Part shown: piece by piece, positions 38,003 to 61,428 of the stretch
Layout: every line of letters starts with the position of its first letter
Position numbering within the stretch: the stretch's first letter is position 1
Source: Planctomycetota bacterium
Lineage (GTDB): Bacteria; Planctomycetota; SZUA-567; H5-PLA8
NCBI GenBank assembly: GCA_038227875.1
Contig: JBBRPR010000027.1
Location: forward strand, 41,153 to 105,152
Reading direction: 5' to 3'
DNA: 64,000 nucleotides
Translations under genes and position numbers: made by a program
The notes under the pieces: model-generated
Databases searched by the model: none
What the model was told of the DNA's origin: nothing
What the model saw: the letters and a program-made list of their open reading frames with translations, nothing else

Positions 38003-38088
38003 CAGCAGCCCGTTGATTAACCCTTGGCCTACGCCGCGAAACGCCTTTACTGCCAGGCGTTTCACGGTGAAATCTAACGGGCTGCTAG
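38003..38088. other. Copy 2 of the structured motif: outer stem CAGCAGCCCGTT/AACGGGCTGCTA enclosing AAACGCCT-TTACTGCC-AGGCGTTT plus CACGGTGAA
   Basis: It overlaps the stop codon of the flotillin gene and lies upstream of the 37528..37794 gene. The outer stem differs from copy 1 by compensatory changes. Confidence 0.45.
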
Positions 38089-40358
38089 TTCACGGTCGCG
38101 GTCAGCTTCGGGACTTCCTTTTCGCCGGGCAGCGCGGCCGCAGGTTCCGCGGCCGTGCCGGTGGCGTACTTCTTGGTCAGTTCGCGGGCGAGGGTTTCCA
38201 ACTCTTCCATACCCTTGCCGCCGTCGCCGATGTTGACGCCAGCTTTCTCCGCCAGCAGCAGCGAGACCAGTTGTCCCATCACTCCCGTCGGCGCAACATC
38301 CATGCCGCCGGAATGACCGTTACCGTCGCCGTTCCCGTTCGAACCTCCGCCGCTGCCGCCGACCATGAAGAGCCGTTCGGGGACCAGCGGTTGAGCGCTC
38401 TTGGAGAACTGCTCGCCGACCAGGTTGAGCGCGAACAGCCTCGGGTCGCCGTAGGCGCGGATCTTCTGGAGGAAGACCGCGGCTTCGGAAAGTCCCGTCT
38501 GAGCGATGCGCGCCGCCTCGCCTTTGCCGATCAGTTCCTTGGCGCGGGATTCCGCCAGCGCCAGGTTGGTCTTCGACGTGGCTTCGGCTTCGGACAGCAG
38601 CACCTTCATCCGTGAATCGCCTTCCGCCAGCAGCACTTTCGTGCGGGCCTCGCCTTCCGCTCGAGCGATGTCGCGTTTGGCCAGGCGCTGGGCTTCCGCT
38701 AACTGCGCGTCGGCCTTATTCCCGGCGATCTCGACACCGATCTTCGTCTGCGTCAGTTCGGCCTGTTTGTCGGCGGCGGCCTTGGCGTTGTTCAGTTCAC
38801 GCTGCTTGACCGCGGCCTCTTCCTGCTTGGCGTACGTGGCGATCTGTTCCTCGGCCAGGCGCCGGACGCGCAACTGGTCAAAGAGCCTTTCGATCGGATC
38901 TTCACCCATCGCCTGACCGGCACGCACTTTCGATTCCGGGCGTCCGATCAGCACGGCGATGCAGTTGATGTCGTAGAGCATGAAACGCTTGGCCAGTTCT
39001 TCGGTCGCGCGCTTCTGGATTTCGTCGCGCTTGGTCAGCAGGTCCAGCATGTGCGATCCCTGCGCGATGTCCCGGAAGTAGCTCGACAGAATCGGGTCCA
39101 GCGTCTGGTTGATCAACCGCTTCACATCGCCGAAGCGCTGAATCACGCTCGGCGCCTTTTCGTAGTCGATGTGCAGCACCAGCGAGAGCGGCAGTACGGG
39201 TTCATAACCGTCGGCCGTGATCAGGTCGATGCTGTTCAAGTCTTCGTCGTAATGGTGGGACTCCACTTGTCCCGTGATCCAGCGCAGCACGAAGTTGACC
39301 GTCGGGACCAGCTCGATTTTCTGCGCGTAAGGATTGAGCGCGTACTTGCCCGGAGGCAACGCCCGCTTCCACACGCCTCGCTGGCCCGGCTCGACCTGCT
39401 CGCCGTAGCGGAACCCCGCTCCGGTCAGATCCTGTCCGGCCGCGCCGTGGTAGGAGACCACCACGCCGACGTAGCCGATCGGGACCATCGTCTTGGGATG
39501 AATTTCCACGGTCGCGAACCAGCGGTTGATGAAGTACGTGCCGTCTGTCAGCACCTGCAACTGCTTGCCGCGCCGTCCGTTCATCGCCAGGAACGCTTCG
39601 GGGTCCTGGAAGTAATTGTGGTCTTTCTCTCCTTTCTCGTCTTTGACTTCCGGCGCGATGATGTCGCCGGATTCGATCGAAAAACCGTCGTGAACCGTGA
39701 CGACGCCGATGGTGTCCGACGGCATCAATTCACCCGTGGCCGGAGCCTGTGTGGTCTCGCCCTGGATTCCCGAATGTCCGATGACCACGGGAAAGAAGGC
39801 GTTGCTCTGCTGCAGTTCTTCCTGCCACGAGAGATAGCGCCGGTCGTCGGCGTCGCGGATGGGACCGGTGTAGACCCGGTCTTCCGTGATCACCACAAAC
39901 AACGCCGTGTTGATGGCGTACACGCCTTCGCGCAGAATCGCGCGCTGACGTCCGCGCTGTCCGCCACCTCCGAGGAACGAAACCGCGTCCTGGAACGAAT
40001 TGCAATTCACGCGGTGAGCCAGCGTCTGCGTCGGCGACAAGGGCGAACCGTCGCGCGCGTAGACGTAGCCGATCTTGCTTTCGCTGATGACCACCAGCGG
40101 TTCGGTGTGCACGCGGTACTGCCAGGGGAACAGCCCCCACTGCAGGCCGCCGCGCAGGATCTCCGCCTGGAGACCCGCCCGTCCACCGACGGCGATGATC
40201 TGGCCGCTCTTCAATGAGCCGTTGCCGGACCACAGCTTTTCGACGATGCCTACTCTGTTGTGCGGGATGTACCGGATTCCCAGCAGCCACGAGAGAAACA
40301 TGACGGCGGGAATACTCCCCGCGAGGCATACGGCGATGACGACAAGAAAGTCGTGCAT
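38085..40358 (-). CDS. Flotillin / SPFH (band-7) family protein (YqiK-like) with a Gly-rich C-terminal extension
   Basis: N-terminal TM (MHDFLVVIAVCLAGSIPAVMFLSWLLGI), an SPFH domain, and a long coiled-coil (AEAQRLAKRDIARAEGEARTKVLLAEGDSR...). The ATG at 40358 has a GGGAGGG RBS. The ORF track extends to 40742. Confidence 0.7.
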   Translation of the reverse strand: MHDFLVVIAVCLAGSIPAVMFLSWLLGIRYIPHNRVGIVEKLWSGNGSLKSGQIIAVGGRAGLQAEILRGGLQWGLFPWQYRVHTEPLVVISESKIGYVYARDGSPLSPTQTLAHRVNCNSFQDAVSFLGGGGQRGRQRAILREGVYAINTALFVVITEDRVYTGPIRDADDRRYLSWQEELQQSNAFFPVVIGHSGIQGETTQAPATGELMPSDTIGVVTVHDGFSIESGDIIAPEVKDEKGEKDHNYFQDPEAFLAMNGRRGKQLQVLTDGTYFINRWFATVEIHPKTMVPIGYVGVVVSYHGAAGQDLTGAGFRYGEQVEPGQRGVWKRALPPGKYALNPYAQKIELVPTVNFVLRWITGQVESHHYDEDLNSIDLITADGYEPVLPLSLVLHIDYEKAPSVIQRFGDVKRLINQTLDPILSSYFRDIAQGSHMLDLLTKRDEIQKRATEELAKRFMLYDINCIAVLIGRPESKVRAGQAMGEDPIERLFDQLRVRRLAEEQIATYAKQEEAAVKQRELNNAKAAADKQAELTQTKIGVEIAGNKADAQLAEAQRLAKRDIARAEGEARTKVLLAEGDSRMKVLLSEAEATSKTNLALAESRAKELIGKGEAARIAQTGLSEAAVFLQKIRAYGDPRLFALNLVGEQFSKSAQPLVPERLFMVGGSGGGSNGNGDGNGHSGGMDVAPTGVMGQLVSLLLAEKAGVNIGDGGKGMEELETLARELTKKYATGTAAEPAAALPGEKEVPKLTATVN

Positions 40359-41088
40359 AGAACCCTCCCTTCGAGAAAGTCCGTGCGTTCTTGCGTGACT
40401 ACGCAGTTGGACTATGGCCTGATGGCTACAGTCCAAGTATATCACGCTGCGGCGGACTTTGGTTTTTGTGGGTAAAGTTGGACGGGCAGAGATGCCCGGC
40501 ATGCGGCGAGGAGGAGGAGCCGTATGCCGGACGATCTCTACTCCGCCAGATTGGCAATACGCGGACGACCTGGGCTGGGAGTCCCGAGTCGGCCAGTGCC
40601 GCGCCGCGAGGTGTGTGCCCGCGACGCGGAGTTTGCGCACTGCCACAGCCGGCTCAGAAGCTTTTGGTGGTTGCAATCCTGAGAATGCCGAAGGCATCTC
40701 TTGATTGGGGGCTTGATTTGAACAGGATGGAGCCCACATCACAGGCGGAGCGCCTGTGCCACAGAAGCCTCTGAGGATTAAAAGTGGGCGCGAACGTTTG
40801 TTGCGACGCCCTGAACAAGCCTACGAGGTTAGCTGACGGGTTAGGGACTTCAGGTACCCTTCCTGCTTAAAACCGCAGGATACACCCCAACTGATTGGTT
40901 CCCCCGTTTCAGCCCTACGAGGACTGAACTCGGCGCTGTTGTGTTACGTCCGTAAGAAACCACGATTCCGATCTAATGTCAATATAATAGTAGGGGCTTG
41001 TTTGTAATCGCTGTGCACGTGTGGTGTAGCGCGACGGGACTTCGGATAATCCTTGCTGATTGTCACACAGGAATTATCGTCGACATCC

Positions 41089-41786: not shown

Positions 41787-42086
41787 TCAGCTGCGGCGAA
41801 TGTAGATCCACCACGTCTCGTCGTCAGGTACGTCGCTCTCGATAATCCGCACGACTTCCAATCCCGGCCGGTCCGCGACGGCGTACGGCACTTCGAATTT
41901 GCTCCCCGGCCAGTCGCCGACCACTTCCAGAATCTCGCCGGCCGTCATCGCCTTGCTCCGCTCCAGACTTTTCAGCGCCGGCATCGGGCAGGTCATGCCG
42001 CGGCAGTCCAGGTGTTGCGTGATCGTAAAGAGTTTACCCTCGTCGTCGGTCTGTTCGCCGTGGAAGGGCAGAGCGGGGGAGTCCAT
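41787..42086 (-). CDS. TusA-like sulfurtransferase / sulfur-carrier domain protein
   Basis: 99 aa. LDCRGMTCPMPALKSLERSKAM carries the CPxP motif of TusA-family proteins. Its ATG overlaps the stop of the upstream DGC gene. The ORF track's long N-terminal extension (to 42767) is an out-of-frame artefact. Confidence 0.65.
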   Translation of the reverse strand: MDSPALPFHGEQTDDEGKLFTITQHLDCRGMTCPMPALKSLERSKAMTAGEILEVVGDWPGSKFEVPYAVADRPGLEVVRIIESDVPDDETWWIYIRRS

Positions 42087-42088
42087 GC

Positions 42089-43420
42089 TCACTTTCCTTC
42101 CGCCGACGGTGTGGAGGGCGGCGGCGGCGCTTTGGGCTTGGGTTTGAAAAGATTGGAGATCACGTTCTTCCCCGTGATGCACGCCACGCCGATCGACGCC
42201 GGTTCTTCCACGGGTTTGGGTGGCGGAGGCTGGGGGACTGTCGGCGCCGAAGTCGAAGCCGCTCGTTCCAACTGCTGCTTCGCCAGCTGCACGAGATAGC
42301 CCTTGCCGGAATCGGCGAAGCCGGTCATCGCGTTGATCTTTCCCGGCTCGTGGATCAGGCCATGCAGATTCACTTTCGCCGGCGCCCACGGAATTTCCTG
42401 ATCGAGCAAGCCTTCGACTGAAGTGGTGATCGCATCCGCGAGCTTCGCCGACTCCGCCACTTCCGCGGGCGTGAGGTCCGGCTCCAGGCAGTACGTCTCG
42501 CCATTGAACGCCGGATCGAGCTGCGCGAGGTCCACGTGCGCGACCGCCGGAATGCCGTAGTGCTCCGCCGCCACCGACGCGCAACGCAACCCGCAGCCGT
42601 TCACCGCGACGCTCGGAAACTGCTCGAGCATGTCGACGTCTTCCTGTACACCCGCCGCCAGCGCCGAAATACACAGCACCTGCGAGCGCCCAAGAAAGCG
42701 ATCTTCGACCACCGTGTACGCCGCGCGCTGCGTAATCCGCCCGCCCGTGCGCTTGATCCCCTGGCACGGAATCACCGTGACCGATTTCACCCGATGCTTG
42801 CCCGTCGCAGTCTGCTCACCAGCCGGTCCGCTCTGGCACACGCCGGTTGTGGCGGCGGCTTCGGCGATGGCCGCGTCTTGTTGAGCTCCCCCCTTCGCGC
42901 TGTTTTGCAACGACGCATCGCTACTCAAAAACGCAACTGGCCGATGCGGACACCCTGCCCCCGCATCCGGCGGAGGTTCGGAGAGATCGTCGACGGGCAC
43001 GAAGCTCGCCTCAACGCCCGCGTCATGCAGCGCCTGCAGCACGCGGTCGGCGGTGAAATCTGAGAGCCGCTTGCCAGTCTCTTCGAGTTCCTTGCGCGTC
43101 TTGCCCGGGCCGAGCTTCTTCTCTTTCATGACCTGATTGACTTCGACTTTCGCGACCGGCTCAACGCCAAACTGTCTGAAGATATGCGCCGCGCAGCGCA
43201 GCGCGCAGCCGTCGATGGCGATCACCGGATGGTTCTGAATCAAGTCGCGCTCGTGTGGATCGCCCGCCAGCAGCGCCGGCAGCGAGAGCAGTTCCACTTC
43301 ATCCGGGCACTGCGCCTGAATCAAATACGACGCGCGCCGCGTGACATTGGCCACGATCTTGCCCACACCCATGCAGGGGGCGAGGACGGTCTTTTGTTTG
43401 GGGGGCGCGCTGTTATCCAT
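42089..43420 (-). CDS. Protein with two tandem DGC (putative zinc-binding, Cys-rich) domains
   Basis: LAPCMGVGKIV...IAIDGCALRCA and VIPCQGIKRTG...VAVNGCGLRCA, each with conserved Cys spacing and the D/NGC motif. I chose the start at MDNSAPP (43420) because the ORF-track N-terminus is translated from the heptamer repeats. Confidence 0.6.
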   Translation of the reverse strand: MDNSAPPKQKTVLAPCMGVGKIVANVTRRASYLIQAQCPDEVELLSLPALLAGDPHERDLIQNHPVIAIDGCALRCAAHIFRQFGVEPVAKVEVNQVMKEKKLGPGKTRKELEETGKRLSDFTADRVLQALHDAGVEASFVPVDDLSEPPPDAGAGCPHRPVAFLSSDASLQNSAKGGAQQDAAIAEAAATTGVCQSGPAGEQTATGKHRVKSVTVIPCQGIKRTGGRITQRAAYTVVEDRFLGRSQVLCISALAAGVQEDVDMLEQFPSVAVNGCGLRCASVAAEHYGIPAVAHVDLAQLDPAFNGETYCLEPDLTPAEVAESAKLADAITTSVEGLLDQEIPWAPAKVNLHGLIHEPGKINAMTGFADSGKGYLVQLAKQQLERAASTSAPTVPQPPPPKPVEEPASIGVACITGKNVISNLFKPKPKAPPPPSTPSAEGK

Positions 43421-43450
43421 GCGATGGCGCCTTTGCAAGAAACGGGAAGA

Positions 43451-43594
43451 TTGCGGATTGCGGATTGCGGATTGCGGATTGGACGGCAAAGCTCGCATTG
43501 AGAACCATACACAGTGCTCCGAAATTTCTTGCACGCTCTTCTGTCTTGAAGCTACCGCATTCTAATCCGCAATCCGCAATCCGAAATCCGCAAT
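43451..43594. repeat. Inverted tandem heptamer arrays: (TTGCGGA)x4 at 43451-43480 and (AATCCGC/AATCCGA)x4 at 43564-43594, separated by 83 nt
   Basis: Read directly from the sequence. The arms can pair as a roughly 30-bp stem. They fill the intergenic gap between the GcvH-like and DGC genes. Confidence 0.85.
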
Positions 43595-43600
43595 AAAAAA

Positions 43601-44053
43601 TCACGCCTGGCCCTTCAACATCTTCACCGTCTCTTCCCAGCCGCTCGCAAGGAACGCGACGTAGGCAGCCGCGTCCAACGGCCGGTCCGGCTTGCCTTCG
43701 AATTCCAGCAGCCAGTGTTCGTAAGGATCGACGGTGAGCAGCGACGGGTCGTTCACGGCGGCCTGATTGATGTCCGCGAGCTTCCCCGTCAGCGGCGCGT
43801 AAAATTCCGATGACGCCTTGGTGCTTTCGACTTCCCCCAGCACCTGCTCGTACTGAATCGCTTCGCCGACGTAGACCTTCCAGTCGATGCGGAACAGATC
43901 GGAGAGCAGCCGCGCCGCGTATGCCGAAATGCCGCTGCGCGTATTACCGTTGGGCAGCGTCTGAAACCAGAAATGGGACTCGCAATACTGCAAGTCGACC
44001 GGAAACGTCGCCTTGTACAACCCCATTTCAAACGTCAGCCGTTCCGCCGCCAT
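43601..44053 (-). CDS. Glycine-cleavage H-protein family (lipoyl-carrier) paralog
   Basis: 150 aa. VGEAIQYEQVLGEVESTKASSEFYAPLTGKLADINQAAVNDPSLLTVDPYEHWLLEFEG aligns with the GcvH lipoyl-lysine region (ES-x-KA). No gcvT/gcvP is adjacent. Confidence 0.7.
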   Translation of the reverse strand: MAAERLTFEMGLYKATFPVDLQYCESHFWFQTLPNGNTRSGISAYAARLLSDLFRIDWKVYVGEAIQYEQVLGEVESTKASSEFYAPLTGKLADINQAAVNDPSLLTVDPYEHWLLEFEGKPDRPLDAAAYVAFLASGWEETVKMLKGQA

Positions 44054-44073: not shown

Positions 44074-45798
44074 CTACATTTTTACGTCGAACCGTTTCAC
44101 GGACATCGGCGCCAGCTCAATCTCGATCTTCCCGCCCTTGACCGCAAGGTCCGGATCGACCTGGATCGACTTGGGCGCCGTGTCGTTATATTCATACACC
44201 GGAACGCTCTGTTCGGGCAGCGCGTTCTTGAGATTCAGCACCACTTTGGCGGGCTTCGTCCCGCGCTTGTTGATGAGGATCAGCGTCAGCATCCCCGTCT
44301 TCGAATCCTTCGCCGCATGCACGGAGACATCCTCCGGCGCGCTGACCGTCGCGTTCAGGTACGTATCGCCGAAAGCTGTGTGCCGGCCGTCGGGGTTGCG
44401 GAACATGCGGAAGCCGAAGTAAATCGGCGTGCCCTTGTTTGGCGCGAACCAGTAGAAGCCAAAGTCGAGCTTCTCGCGCGCGAAGACGCCCAGCAGTTCG
44501 GCCTGCGTCACGCCGCCCGACGCATCGTCCTGTCCTTTGAAATCGTACTCGCCGATCGCCAGCTTCATTCCCGGATTGGCCTCGGCGATCCAATCGCGCA
44601 TTAGCGGAATCACGCGCAAGACCTTGCCGGTCTCCGAACCCATCCAGCTCGAATCCTTGAACGTCGGATCCCACATCACGCGCGTCTCCTGGACGCGCTT
44701 TTCCATCACCGCCGGATCGTGCGGTTTGCCGTCGACGTTGGCCTGCGGATAAAAATGGAAATCGAGAATGTCGACCAGTCGCACGCCATTCTTTTTCTCA
44801 TACTCGTTCAATTGCTGGAGGTACCACTTCGTCAGCGGCACTTTTCCATGAGCCGTGAAATCCGGCGGCTCGTTCCACGTTCCCTTGCCCTGTCCAATCA
44901 GCTGCGCGTCGAGCCCGGAGTAAAAATACTCCGTCCAGCCCCAGGAGGTCGGTCCGGCGAGCTTCACATTCGGATCGATCTTCTTCAGCGCAATCGCGTA
45001 ATCGCGGGTGCGCTGCCAGAGTTCATCGTAGCCGCACGCTTTGGGGTGCATGCCGAAATGCGACGTGTGCCAGAGTCCCGGCTCGTTATCCAGCGCGATG
45101 TAGTTCACGCCACCGGCACCGGCCTTGCCGAATTTCATCTCGTTGATCGTGAAGTCGAGCAGCTTCACCTGCTCCTCGAGCGGCATCTCGACGGACGTGT
45201 CGTCGGGATTCGGCTCCAGCGCCTTGATGATCGGCTTGCCCTTGTCGTCGAGCTTCGGCGTGCCGTCCTCGCCGACTTCAAACTGCTTACCGTTGCCCGC
45301 GTAGGCGTAATCCCAATCTGCATGTTCCTGCCCGATCCACTTTTCCTGATGGGGATATTTCTTGATATCGAACGCGACCGACGTCCCATCCTTCGCCACG
45401 CGCCCCATCATCGGAATCGTGAGGTAACCTTCCAGCCCCGCCTCCTTGTTGCCCTGATGAAACGCGACCCACCAATTCTTCTCCGGCCCAACCGGCTTGC
45501 CCGTGTTGACGTACCACCAGTCCGCGCCGCTCGAGGTAAAGCCCGCTTTCCAGTTGTACGGCGTACACGGATTGCCGCCGAGCCGCCGCACCGACACGCC
45601 CATCTCCAGCGCCAGCTTCGGATCCGCCTGGGCGATGCCGTAAATGTACGGACTGATCGGCGTGCCGGCCGCGTCCGTATCGAGCTCCACGGTCACAACT
45701 TCAACCGCGGGCGGCGGCGCTTTCGGTTCTTCCGCTGAGAGTATGGAGCCGAGGGAGCAGGCAACGAGCACGGCGGCGAGCGCGAACGCATGACGCAT
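44074..45798 (-). CDS. Secreted glycoside hydrolase (TIM-barrel; family uncertain, possibly GH44-like)
   Basis: Signal peptide. YIYGIAQ...RLGGNPCTPYNW block, many aromatic/acidic residues typical of GH, and length 574 aa. Confidence 0.55.
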   Translation of the reverse strand: MRHAFALAAVLVACSLGSILSAEEPKAPPPAVEVVTVELDTDAAGTPISPYIYGIAQADPKLALEMGVSVRRLGGNPCTPYNWKAGFTSSGADWWYVNTGKPVGPEKNWWVAFHQGNKEAGLEGYLTIPMMGRVAKDGTSVAFDIKKYPHQEKWIGQEHADWDYAYAGNGKQFEVGEDGTPKLDDKGKPIIKALEPNPDDTSVEMPLEEQVKLLDFTINEMKFGKAGAGGVNYIALDNEPGLWHTSHFGMHPKACGYDELWQRTRDYAIALKKIDPNVKLAGPTSWGWTEYFYSGLDAQLIGQGKGTWNEPPDFTAHGKVPLTKWYLQQLNEYEKKNGVRLVDILDFHFYPQANVDGKPHDPAVMEKRVQETRVMWDPTFKDSSWMGSETGKVLRVIPLMRDWIAEANPGMKLAIGEYDFKGQDDASGGVTQAELLGVFAREKLDFGFYWFAPNKGTPIYFGFRMFRNPDGRHTAFGDTYLNATVSAPEDVSVHAAKDSKTGMLTLILINKRGTKPAKVVLNLKNALPEQSVPVYEYNDTAPKSIQVDPDLAVKGGKIEIELAPMSVKRFDVKM

Positions 45799-47992: not shown

Positions 47993-48435
47993 TGGACGAC
48001 GCCGCATAATGGTAGGAAGCCCCGCACTGGAACCCGCACGCGTGACTGAAACTGGCTCGAATTAAGATAACGCCCTTCGCACCGTGAGCAACACTTTCAT
48101 CGTGAAAAGATCATCAAAAAGTGAGTCGCCGATAAAAGCTATAAAATTAGCGGCAGGAACTATGCCGTAGATGCCCACGCCAACGATAACAGATGGGATC
48201 GGGGATCTGGCATCGGGCATCTGCTTTTTGGGAGGCACGTCCGTAATGCCCAATCGGAGAGAAATAACGTTGTAATACGGTGCGCCCACAAAATGACCGA
48301 TGCCAGATGCCCGATCCCCGATGCCATTAGTTGGCGTCGAGCCCGACCCCTTCACTAGAATCTTCCCCGCCATCCGCTATCTTTATCGTTTCCGTCGCGA
48401 CACGACGGCACAGACCATTTTCACTTGGAGAAGCC

Positions 48436-61218: not shown

Positions 61219-61428
61219 ATTGCGGATTGCGGATTTCGGATTGCGGATTAGCGAAGGGGATCGGTCCGTTTTTGCGCGGGAGTCATTCGAGATCGGGAGC
61301 AACGGAGACGAATAAAAGAAAAGCGTGCGCGCTAAAATTCGTGGGTAGGATTTTGATCTCGGAATTCACCCCGCGTAACGGACCAGCAACCGTCGCTAAT
61401 CCGCAATCCGCAATCCGAAATCCGCAAT
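61219..61428. repeat. Second pair of inverted heptamer arrays: (TTGCGGA/TTTCGGA)x4 at 61219-61250 and (AATCCGC/AATCCGA)x4 at 61397-61428, separated by 146 nt
   Basis: The right array is identical, as a 32-mer, to the right array at 43563-43594. It lies between two convergent genes. Confidence 0.85.

Follow-up and report, generated by a model that had tools for sequence, protein, structure and literature searches.

A conserved gene grouping of a GcvH-like lipoyl-carrier paralogue with tandem-DGC and TusA-like proteins in Planctomycetota

A contig of a Planctomycetota bacterium (JBBRPR010000027.1) was analysed over a stretch of 64 000 nt, referred to here as the window. Between 45.8 and 41.8 kb its minus strand carries, in this order, genes for a GH44 glycoside hydrolase, a GcvH-like protein, a protein with two DGC domains and a TusA-like protein. 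An initial annotation, made from the sequence without database searches, had singled out the last three as a GcvH paralogue, a two-DGC protein and a TusA-like sulphur carrier, and Pfam searches support all three assignments well above the gathering scores. The GcvH-like lipoyl-carrier paralogue (GcvHL; 43601–44053, minus strand, 150 aa) matches GCV_H with 65.5 bits against a gathering score of 22.2 (E 5.6e-18). The tandem DGC-domain protein (DGC2; 42089–43420, minus strand, 443 aa from the ATG of MDNSAPP) matches DGC in two stretches with 101.7 bits against 27 (E 2.7e-29), and the TusA-like protein (41787–42086, minus strand, 99 aa) matches TusA with 46.9 bits against 28.6 (E 2.6e-12). About 46 candidate open reading frames (ORFs) picked across the window were scanned against Pfam, and the gene absences reported below refer to this set. 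No gcvT, gcvP or lpd gene, and neither hdr (Hdr/CCG-domain) nor dsrE, was found among them, as had been noted initially; lplA, lipA and lipB were also absent from them.

GcvHL shares the fold family (Pfam GCV_H) and the lysine motif of canonical GcvH, from which it nevertheless differs in several respects. It is 31–42% identical to canonical GcvH, carries extra terminal segments and stays below the NCBIfam equivalog cutoffs (79.5 bits for NF002270, cutoff 117; 68.3 bits for TIGR00527, cutoff 115.85), which bears out its earlier description as a paralogue and shows it to be a divergent one. The lipoyl-lysine context ESTKAS named in that description is present as VESTKAS, with the lysine being K79 (codon 43817–43819, minus strand). 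E76, S77, K79 and A80 are invariant in 27 aligned sequences including canonical GcvH, and by this motif GcvHL is predicted to be competent for lipoylation.

GcvHL belongs to a clade with an amino-terminal extension (FEMGLYKA) and a carboxy-terminal one (GWEETVKMLKGQ; clade form GWEETVKxLKGQ, a helix), both of which are carried by the protein of the window. In a database search, the close relatives, about 60 proteins of about 150 aa (52–98% identical, at least 162 bits), were followed by an abrupt drop in score to at most 76 bits for canonical GcvH of 127 aa. When 1.84 billion representatives were searched with a profile, full-length matches with both extensions amounted to a few dozen clusters at 50% identity, while canonical GcvH matched only profile positions 17–138. 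Several database sources call clade members ‘glycine cleavage system H protein’. However, none of gcvT, gcvP and lpd lies beside a clade member in about 100 loci. No informative fusions of GcvHL were found among the library representatives; the fusion-like cases are tandem GcvH repeats, uncharacterized amino-terminal extensions and a protein that, judged by eye, seems to have been merged in gene calling with a winged-helix regulator encoded upstream.

The two halves of DGC2 are 30% identical (E 3e-16). Alignment, column counts and internal repeat alignment place domain 1 at about residues 9–140 (43001–43396, minus strand) and domain 2 at about residues 212–345 (42386–42787, minus strand). The aligned pairs are C16/C219, S46/C250, C72/C276 and C76/C280, and none of these eight positions varies in 47 sequences (C16 counted over the 43 that reach it). 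Both domains had initially been described as Cys-rich. This holds fully for domain 2 with its four invariant Cys, whereas domain 1 has three together with an invariant Ser. Cys-157 (42950–42952, minus strand), located in the disordered linker between the domains, is present in 46 of the 47 sequences, often as CxC, and from its conservation may be a candidate for the fourth ligand of domain 1.

Homologues of DGC2 number 69, all of them from Planctomycetota metagenome-assembled genomes (MAGs) or metagenomic; those from named organisms are all Planctomycetota MAGs. Among 185 579 species-representative genomes, 12 matching loci were found. In an AlphaFold (AF2) model (mean predicted local distance difference test 81.8, predicted template modelling score 0.75) each domain has a flavodoxin-like alpha/beta fold, with the Cys residues just past consecutive beta-strands. 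The fold resembles that of the Ni-recognizing protein HybD; the PDB contains no sequence relatives of DGC2. In the literature, the sole mention of the DGC domain (PF08859) that our searches returned, crowded as they were by papers on diguanylate cyclases, is its unexplained occurrence as the last gene of the arsR-arsP-arsE operon in P. mercurii (bioRxiv 10.1101/2022.10.17.512643). DGC2 has the family and the four conserved Cys in common with this single-domain protein. It differs by the tandem duplication, by a linker and tail that bear Cys residues, and by its pairing with GcvHL and TusA rather than with arsenic genes; no arsenic resistance gene was found in the window.

The TusA-like protein has the TusA fold and the CPxP cysteine of the TusA/YedF proteins. 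The active-site motif CPMP reported initially is part of TCPMP, and its C33 (41988–41990, minus strand; clade alignment) is kept as TCP(M/Q)P in 9/9 aligned relatives. In contrast to TusA and YedF themselves, the protein stays below both equivalog cutoffs (YedF best with 42.6 bits, cutoff 79; TusA 20.7 bits, cutoff 78), has an amino-terminal extension particular to its clade (PFHxxQxDDxG) and is not located beside yedE/yeeE, dsrE or tus genes. Invariant in the clade are TCP(M/Q)PALK and EVVGDWPGSK. The EVV-D-P-S pattern appears, in an alignment with E. coli sequences, to resemble that of YedF.

The three genes are probably co-transcribed. The spacer between GcvHL and DGC2 measures 180 nt. Between DGC2 and TusA the genes are nearly contiguous: the TusA ATG (42086–42084), formerly thought to overlap the DGC2 stop codon TGA (42091–42089), lies 2 nt away from it, and only an alternative in-frame start, the GTG at 42092, would produce an overlap (as GTGA).

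Conservation of the grouping was assessed by gene-context look-ups together with ORF calling and phmmer on fetched loci. In 19 of 21 distinct loci GcvHL is adjacent to DGC2, either immediately upstream or divergently oriented within about 1 kb. Because this adjacency persists among flanking genes that are unrelated between the loci, the grouping of the three genes is not due to chance. TusA follows DGC2 in 8 of the 16 loci having downstream sequence, and in one lineage (P0043; loci L007 and L008) DGC2 and TusA form a natural fusion. Two further loci (L031, L032) have GcvHL-TusA pairs without DGC2. In Gemmatales the stop codon of GcvHL overlaps the start of DGC2. The neighbourhood analysis that had been proposed as a check thus supports the trio as a conserved functional unit apart from glycine cleavage. 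All of these loci belong to Planctomycetota, to which the module is restricted among the loci found.

Some loci contain a fourth gene, encoding what is annotated as ‘ferredoxin family protein’ (Fer). The order is GcvHL-DGC2-TusA-Fer in three of them (L005, L026, L034), and L011, with the same upstream synteny as L005, has GcvHL-Fer. In Gemmatales the order is beta-propeller, radical S-adenosylmethionine (SAM) protein, GcvHL, DGC2; here DGC2 occupies the slot of Fer, and no Fer gene is found within 8 kb.

A metagenome scan with a profile of the GcvHL clade detected at least 477 relatives, 80 loci of which were fetched. In most of the closest 11 (L024–L034), GcvHL is accompanied by DGC2 and/or TusA. 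The remaining 69 (L035–L103) contain a regular cluster of beta-propeller, radical-SAM, GcvHL and Fer genes: Fer is present in 50 loci, GcvHL is directly preceded by a HemN/HutW/STM4012-like radical-SAM gene in 44, and a BamB/PQQ-like beta-propeller gene occurs in 18. In Fer, a flavodoxin-like amino-terminal domain precedes the two-[4Fe-4S] domain, and the tail is acidic; its family has 6410 matches, annotated merely as ferredoxin. Genes for an aldehyde-dehydrogenase-like protein and an iron-containing alcohol dehydrogenase (Fe-ADH) are often located upstream. A variant cluster has the order GcvHL, CobW-like GTPase, Fer, second radical-SAM protein, SHC-like protein, DUF116/polyprenyl synthase. 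The GcvHL-Fer pair is found also in a Blastocatellia (Acidobacteriota) MAG, and more than one phylum keeps GcvHL next to DGC2 or Fer.

The triad, taken by itself in the initial annotation, which missed the wider module, is a lineage-specific variant of a system built on the same GcvH-like clade, with DGC2 and TusA as the lineage-specific additions. From the distribution of the genes we infer that Fer is the ancestral partner of GcvHL, and that DGC2 and TusA were inserted beside Fer or replaced it. An exchange of Fer and DGC2 in this slot by way of common descent was ruled out by hhalign, which detected no homology between the two proteins. In the window, tblastn gave no match to Fer, to the CobW-like protein or to the second (NirJ/SPASM-like) radical-SAM protein, and Pfam detected neither Radical_SAM nor Fer4 in the scanned ORFs; the BLAST queries against the window did not include the HemN-like protein. 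Genes for Fer and a HemN-like radical-SAM protein may be located elsewhere in the genome. We found no description of either the module or the broad cluster in the literature, in agreement with the initial view that the system may be an undescribed one.

Several of the related loci show additional features. A widespread cluster, represented in a Gemmatales MAG (L021, 4945–9113) and in L035–L103, comprises aldehyde-dehydrogenase-like, Fe-ADH, BamB/PQQ-like beta-propeller, HemN/HutW-like radical-SAM, GcvH-like and Fer genes; in the lineages with the additional SHC-like protein, DUF116 and polyprenyl synthase form a fusion. Gemmatales loci also carry a second, more divergent GcvH-like gene (L021, 4570–5019, minus strand; 149 aa; GcvH model score 52.6 bits), which lies some 2.5 kb upstream of GcvHL in the opposite orientation and overlaps the beta-propeller gene of the radical-SAM-GcvHL-DGC2 operon at its start. 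In L108 (2488–7363) the GcvHL-Fer pair directly follows genes for FabA/ApeI-like dehydratases, a ketoreductase and an acyl carrier protein (ACP), and in L106 (696–5434) it is near genes for a 2-oxoacid:ferredoxin oxidoreductase and an acyl-CoA dehydrogenase. The neighbours in these two loci hint at a dedicated acyl supply.

The long form of DGC2 ends in a tail of the form C-x-(E/Y)-N-P-G-L-K-x-V-x3-(L/M)-F-K-P-(K/R). A CobW-like GTPase (L009, 8467–9657), which in L009 and L010 takes this place of DGC2 between GcvHL and Fer, ends in ENPCQILRDVFKPKRG. The tail common to both proteins (...FKPK) might serve them as a docking peptide. Where DGC2 is fused to TusA, the aligner puts the active site of TusA (TCPMPALQ) onto the tail motif of DGC2.

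Among the systems described so far, the sHdr systems come closest. In these, TusA and the lipoate-binding protein LbpA are physiological interaction partners (PMC11094781, PMC6067878). Like LbpA, GcvHL is a GcvH paralogue with a conserved lipoyl-lysine that is encoded away from glycine cleavage genes and beside a TusA-type carrier; iron–sulphur proteins accompany both, and radical-SAM genes are located near GcvHL in related loci. LbpA, however, has two strictly conserved Cys near its amino and carboxy termini which are absent from GcvH (PMC6067878). GcvHL lacks both, its one Cys in the window (C24) not being conserved in the clade. Nor does the module contain hdr, dsrE, rhodanese, sLpl(AB) or LipS1/LipS2 genes; no Hdr/CCG genes were found in related loci either. 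Its partners DGC2, Fer and the HemN-like radical-SAM protein are unrelated to Hdr subunits, and the Planctomycetota carrying it are not known as sulphur oxidizers. Membership in the LbpA/sHdr family was rejected because the two defining Cys and the hdr, dsrE and LipS genes are missing.

A second H-protein outside glycine cleavage, encoded in a small operon of its own, is known also from Staphylococcus and Streptococcus, where GcvH-L serves as a lipoyl-based redox carrier in an oxidative-stress operon with SirTM, macrodomain and LplA2 genes (PMC4518038, PMC12440151). The GcvHL locus differs in lacking sirtuin, macrodomain, LplA2 and oxidoreductase genes, and its H-protein belongs to another clade and another phylum. 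With the linked sirtuin, macrodomain and LplA2 genes not found in the window, assignment to the staphylococcal system was likewise rejected.

We propose, with a probability of about 40%, that the module acts as a lipoyl-arm relay for thiol or persulphide groups and electrons. GcvHL would be a lipoylated swinging-arm protein operating outside glycine cleavage, and its dithiol/disulphide arm would exchange reducing equivalents, and possibly sulphane sulphur, with DGC2. The latter would carry two Cys-ligated metal or iron–sulphur sites on its flavodoxin-like domains. The TusA-like protein would dock on DGC2 and deliver or remove persulphide sulphur through C33, and Fer, where present, would tie the module to the electron pool. 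Such a relay, derived from the wider GcvHL-Fer (plus HemN-like radical-SAM) system, would copy the logic of the sHdr-LbpA-TusA system, not its parts (PMC11094781). A role of DGC2 as a redox or metal protein is suggested by the invariant Cys of its repeated domains and by its position in the slot of Fer in Gemmatales.

Several observations weigh against the relay. Of the evaluable DGC2 loci, half have no adjacent TusA gene, and Fer is lacking in most loci, that of the window among them. A relay that required all four proteins from a single locus is therefore excluded. No gene that supplies or consumes sulphur (rhodanese, DsrE, Hdr, a sulphite-forming enzyme) is conserved nearby. The clustering of the DGC2 Cys in space is deduced from the topology of the model. 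In databases the DGC domain is annotated only as ‘putative zinc-binding’, and a structural zinc site would not transfer electrons. Finally, given the HemN-like radical-SAM protein as a common partner in the broad family, GcvHL could at least equally well serve in modification or biosynthesis.

This last point leads to an alternative that we regard as unlikely, though deserving attention: the neighbours could build or repair the prosthetic group of GcvHL. TusA would bring sulphur, DGC2 would be an iron–sulphur or sulphur scaffold, and the radical-SAM protein and Fer, in this locus encoded elsewhere, would insert or modify the group, with GcvHL as the substrate or hub. GcvH of Bacillus subtilis is a hub of this kind for lipoyl relay. 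The radical-SAM gene directly upstream of GcvHL, in the 44 broad-family loci and in the DGC2-bearing Gemmatales operon, speaks for such an assembly role, as do the plausibility of Fer as the source of electrons for a radical-SAM enzyme and the FabA-like, ketoreductase and ACP genes adjoining GcvHL-Fer in L108. LbpA systems, moreover, have radical-SAM lipoyl synthases of their own (PMC6067878, PMC10332631). The radical-SAM proteins observed here are, however, HemN/HutW/STM4012-like and not LipA- or LipS-like. The conserved neighbour clusters include no lipoate ligase or octanoyltransferase, and a radical-SAM partner was found in the window neither by tblastn with the second type nor by the Pfam scans for any such domain.

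The arm of GcvHL might instead ferry a carbon intermediate in a biosynthetic pathway whose enzymes would be the radical-SAM, aldehyde and alcohol dehydrogenase, terpene-cyclase-like and polyprenyl-synthase proteins of other lineages, with DGC2 and TusA as lineage-specific accessories. De novo clustering of neighbours yields the families expected for such a pathway, namely aldehyde-dehydrogenase-like, Fe-ADH, beta-propeller, SHC-like and DUF116-polyprenyl-synthase proteins in 6–18 loci each. We consider it improbable, since none of these enzyme genes occurs in the window or beside the close DGC2 loci, and the main recurrent partner, Fer, is an electron carrier and not a carbon-handling enzyme.

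Of similarly low probability is a function in metal or metalloid handling. DGC2 would then be a Cys-rich chaperone for Zn, Ni, As(III) or Se, and dihydrolipoyl-GcvHL and the YedF-like TusA would bind, reduce and hand over the thiophilic element. The zinc-binding annotation of DGC, its position at the end of the P. mercurii ars operon (bioRxiv 10.1101/2022.10.17.512643) and the resemblance of the DGC2 fold to HybD are consistent with this. So is the CobW-type metallochaperone GTPase with the carboxy-terminal FKPK tail of DGC2, which takes the DGC2 slot in L009 and L106. The best NCBIfam matches, to the selenium-linked YedF and to a ‘CobW-related selenoprotein’, point in the same direction, but all of these are far below the cutoffs. 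Neither the window nor any examined DGC2 locus showed ars, czc, znu or selenium genes, and the ferredoxin and radical-SAM partners would be left unexplained.

That GcvHL is the housekeeping H-protein, placed beside unrelated genes by accident, is very improbable in spite of its GCV_H match, its conserved lipoyl-lysine and the database labels, because its scores lie below both equivalog cutoffs, it belongs to a distinct clade with extensions, and gcvT and gcvP were not found in the scanned ORFs of the window or beside it in the loci examined, while DGC2 or Fer is its conserved neighbour in more than one phylum.

If the relay, or else a lipoyl-dependent radical-SAM pathway, operates in these Planctomycetota and Acidobacteriota, it could be a third non-canonical lipoate system after sHdr-LbpA and GcvH-L/SirTM. 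We put this forward tentatively, as a system in which the lipoyl arm of an H-protein paralogue would be served by a ferredoxin-domain protein and/or by a tandem Cys4 DGC protein with TusA. To our knowledge, lipoate has very few roles. Each new lipoyl-protein system, as in sulphur oxidation with LbpA and in oxidative-stress defence with GcvH-L, has revealed new chemistry. A distinct H-protein clade with an intact lipoyl-lysine, wired to iron–sulphur, Cys-rich and sulphur-carrier proteins, is therefore a testable case for another role of lipoate. It would, if true, give the orphan DGC domain a first functional context, and the present analysis supplies this domain with conserved partners and a natural TusA fusion. 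The components are small and soluble, so that direct study in vitro is feasible.

The 180 nt spacer between GcvHL and DGC2 is filled nearly completely by a heptamer inverted-repeat element (43449–43594, no strand assigned), identified by Tandem Repeats Finder and RNA folding. Its arms consist of GATTGCG repeated 4.7 times (43449–43481) and of the complement repeated 4.4 times (43564–43594). The predicted fold has −74.7 kcal/mol (z −4.6), and the heptamer pattern gave 12 matches against 0.14 expected. A second copy (61219–61428) has the same GATTGCG arms around an unrelated 150 nt loop, and a similar element (48194–48326) is built from other heptamers of the GGCATCG/GGGATCG type. All heptamer elements of the window are intergenic. 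In close relatives, the GcvHL-DGC2 spacers range from a few nt to 111 nt and lack the element. Logan contigs, which are independent short-read assemblies of the same organism, break at it. The hairpin noticed initially between the two genes is thus real, but it is not specific to the operon: it is a repeated intergenic element inserted there and not part of the module. The heptamer elements look like a family similar to repetitive extragenic palindromes or miniature inverted-repeat transposable elements (REP/MITE), and their positions match assembly breaks of the Logan contigs. A function as intrinsic terminator was rejected, as there is no U-tract in either orientation and a terminator scan was unconvincing; Rfam contains no match that would make the hairpin a known RNA.

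Upstream of the module, the end of the GH44 gene (44074–45798, minus strand; Pfam E 1.1e-51) is separated by 20 nt from the ATG of GcvHL. This gene had been taken for that of a secreted glycoside-hydrolase-like protein. The family is confirmed, and the amino terminus of the translation looks by eye like a signal peptide, but the gene is not a conserved neighbour of the module. On the other side, a GDSL lipase gene on the opposite strand converges on the stop codon of TusA. Horizontal acquisition of the locus was rejected, no anomaly in GC content being present.

Two RNA elements were identified in the window by Rfam. A cyclic di-AMP riboswitch (RF00379; 40802–40945, minus strand; 84.7 bits, E 2.7e-18) lies in the leader of a gene for an SPFH/Band_7-domain protein of 885 aa (38085–40742, minus strand), which is an unusual target for riboswitches of this class. 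On a related contig, TusA is followed by the Band_7 gene in the same orientation. The second element, an Acido-Lenti-1 small RNA motif (RF01687; 2359–2404, plus strand; 51.8 bits, E 8.4e-09), is located just 3′ of a DUF2625 gene.

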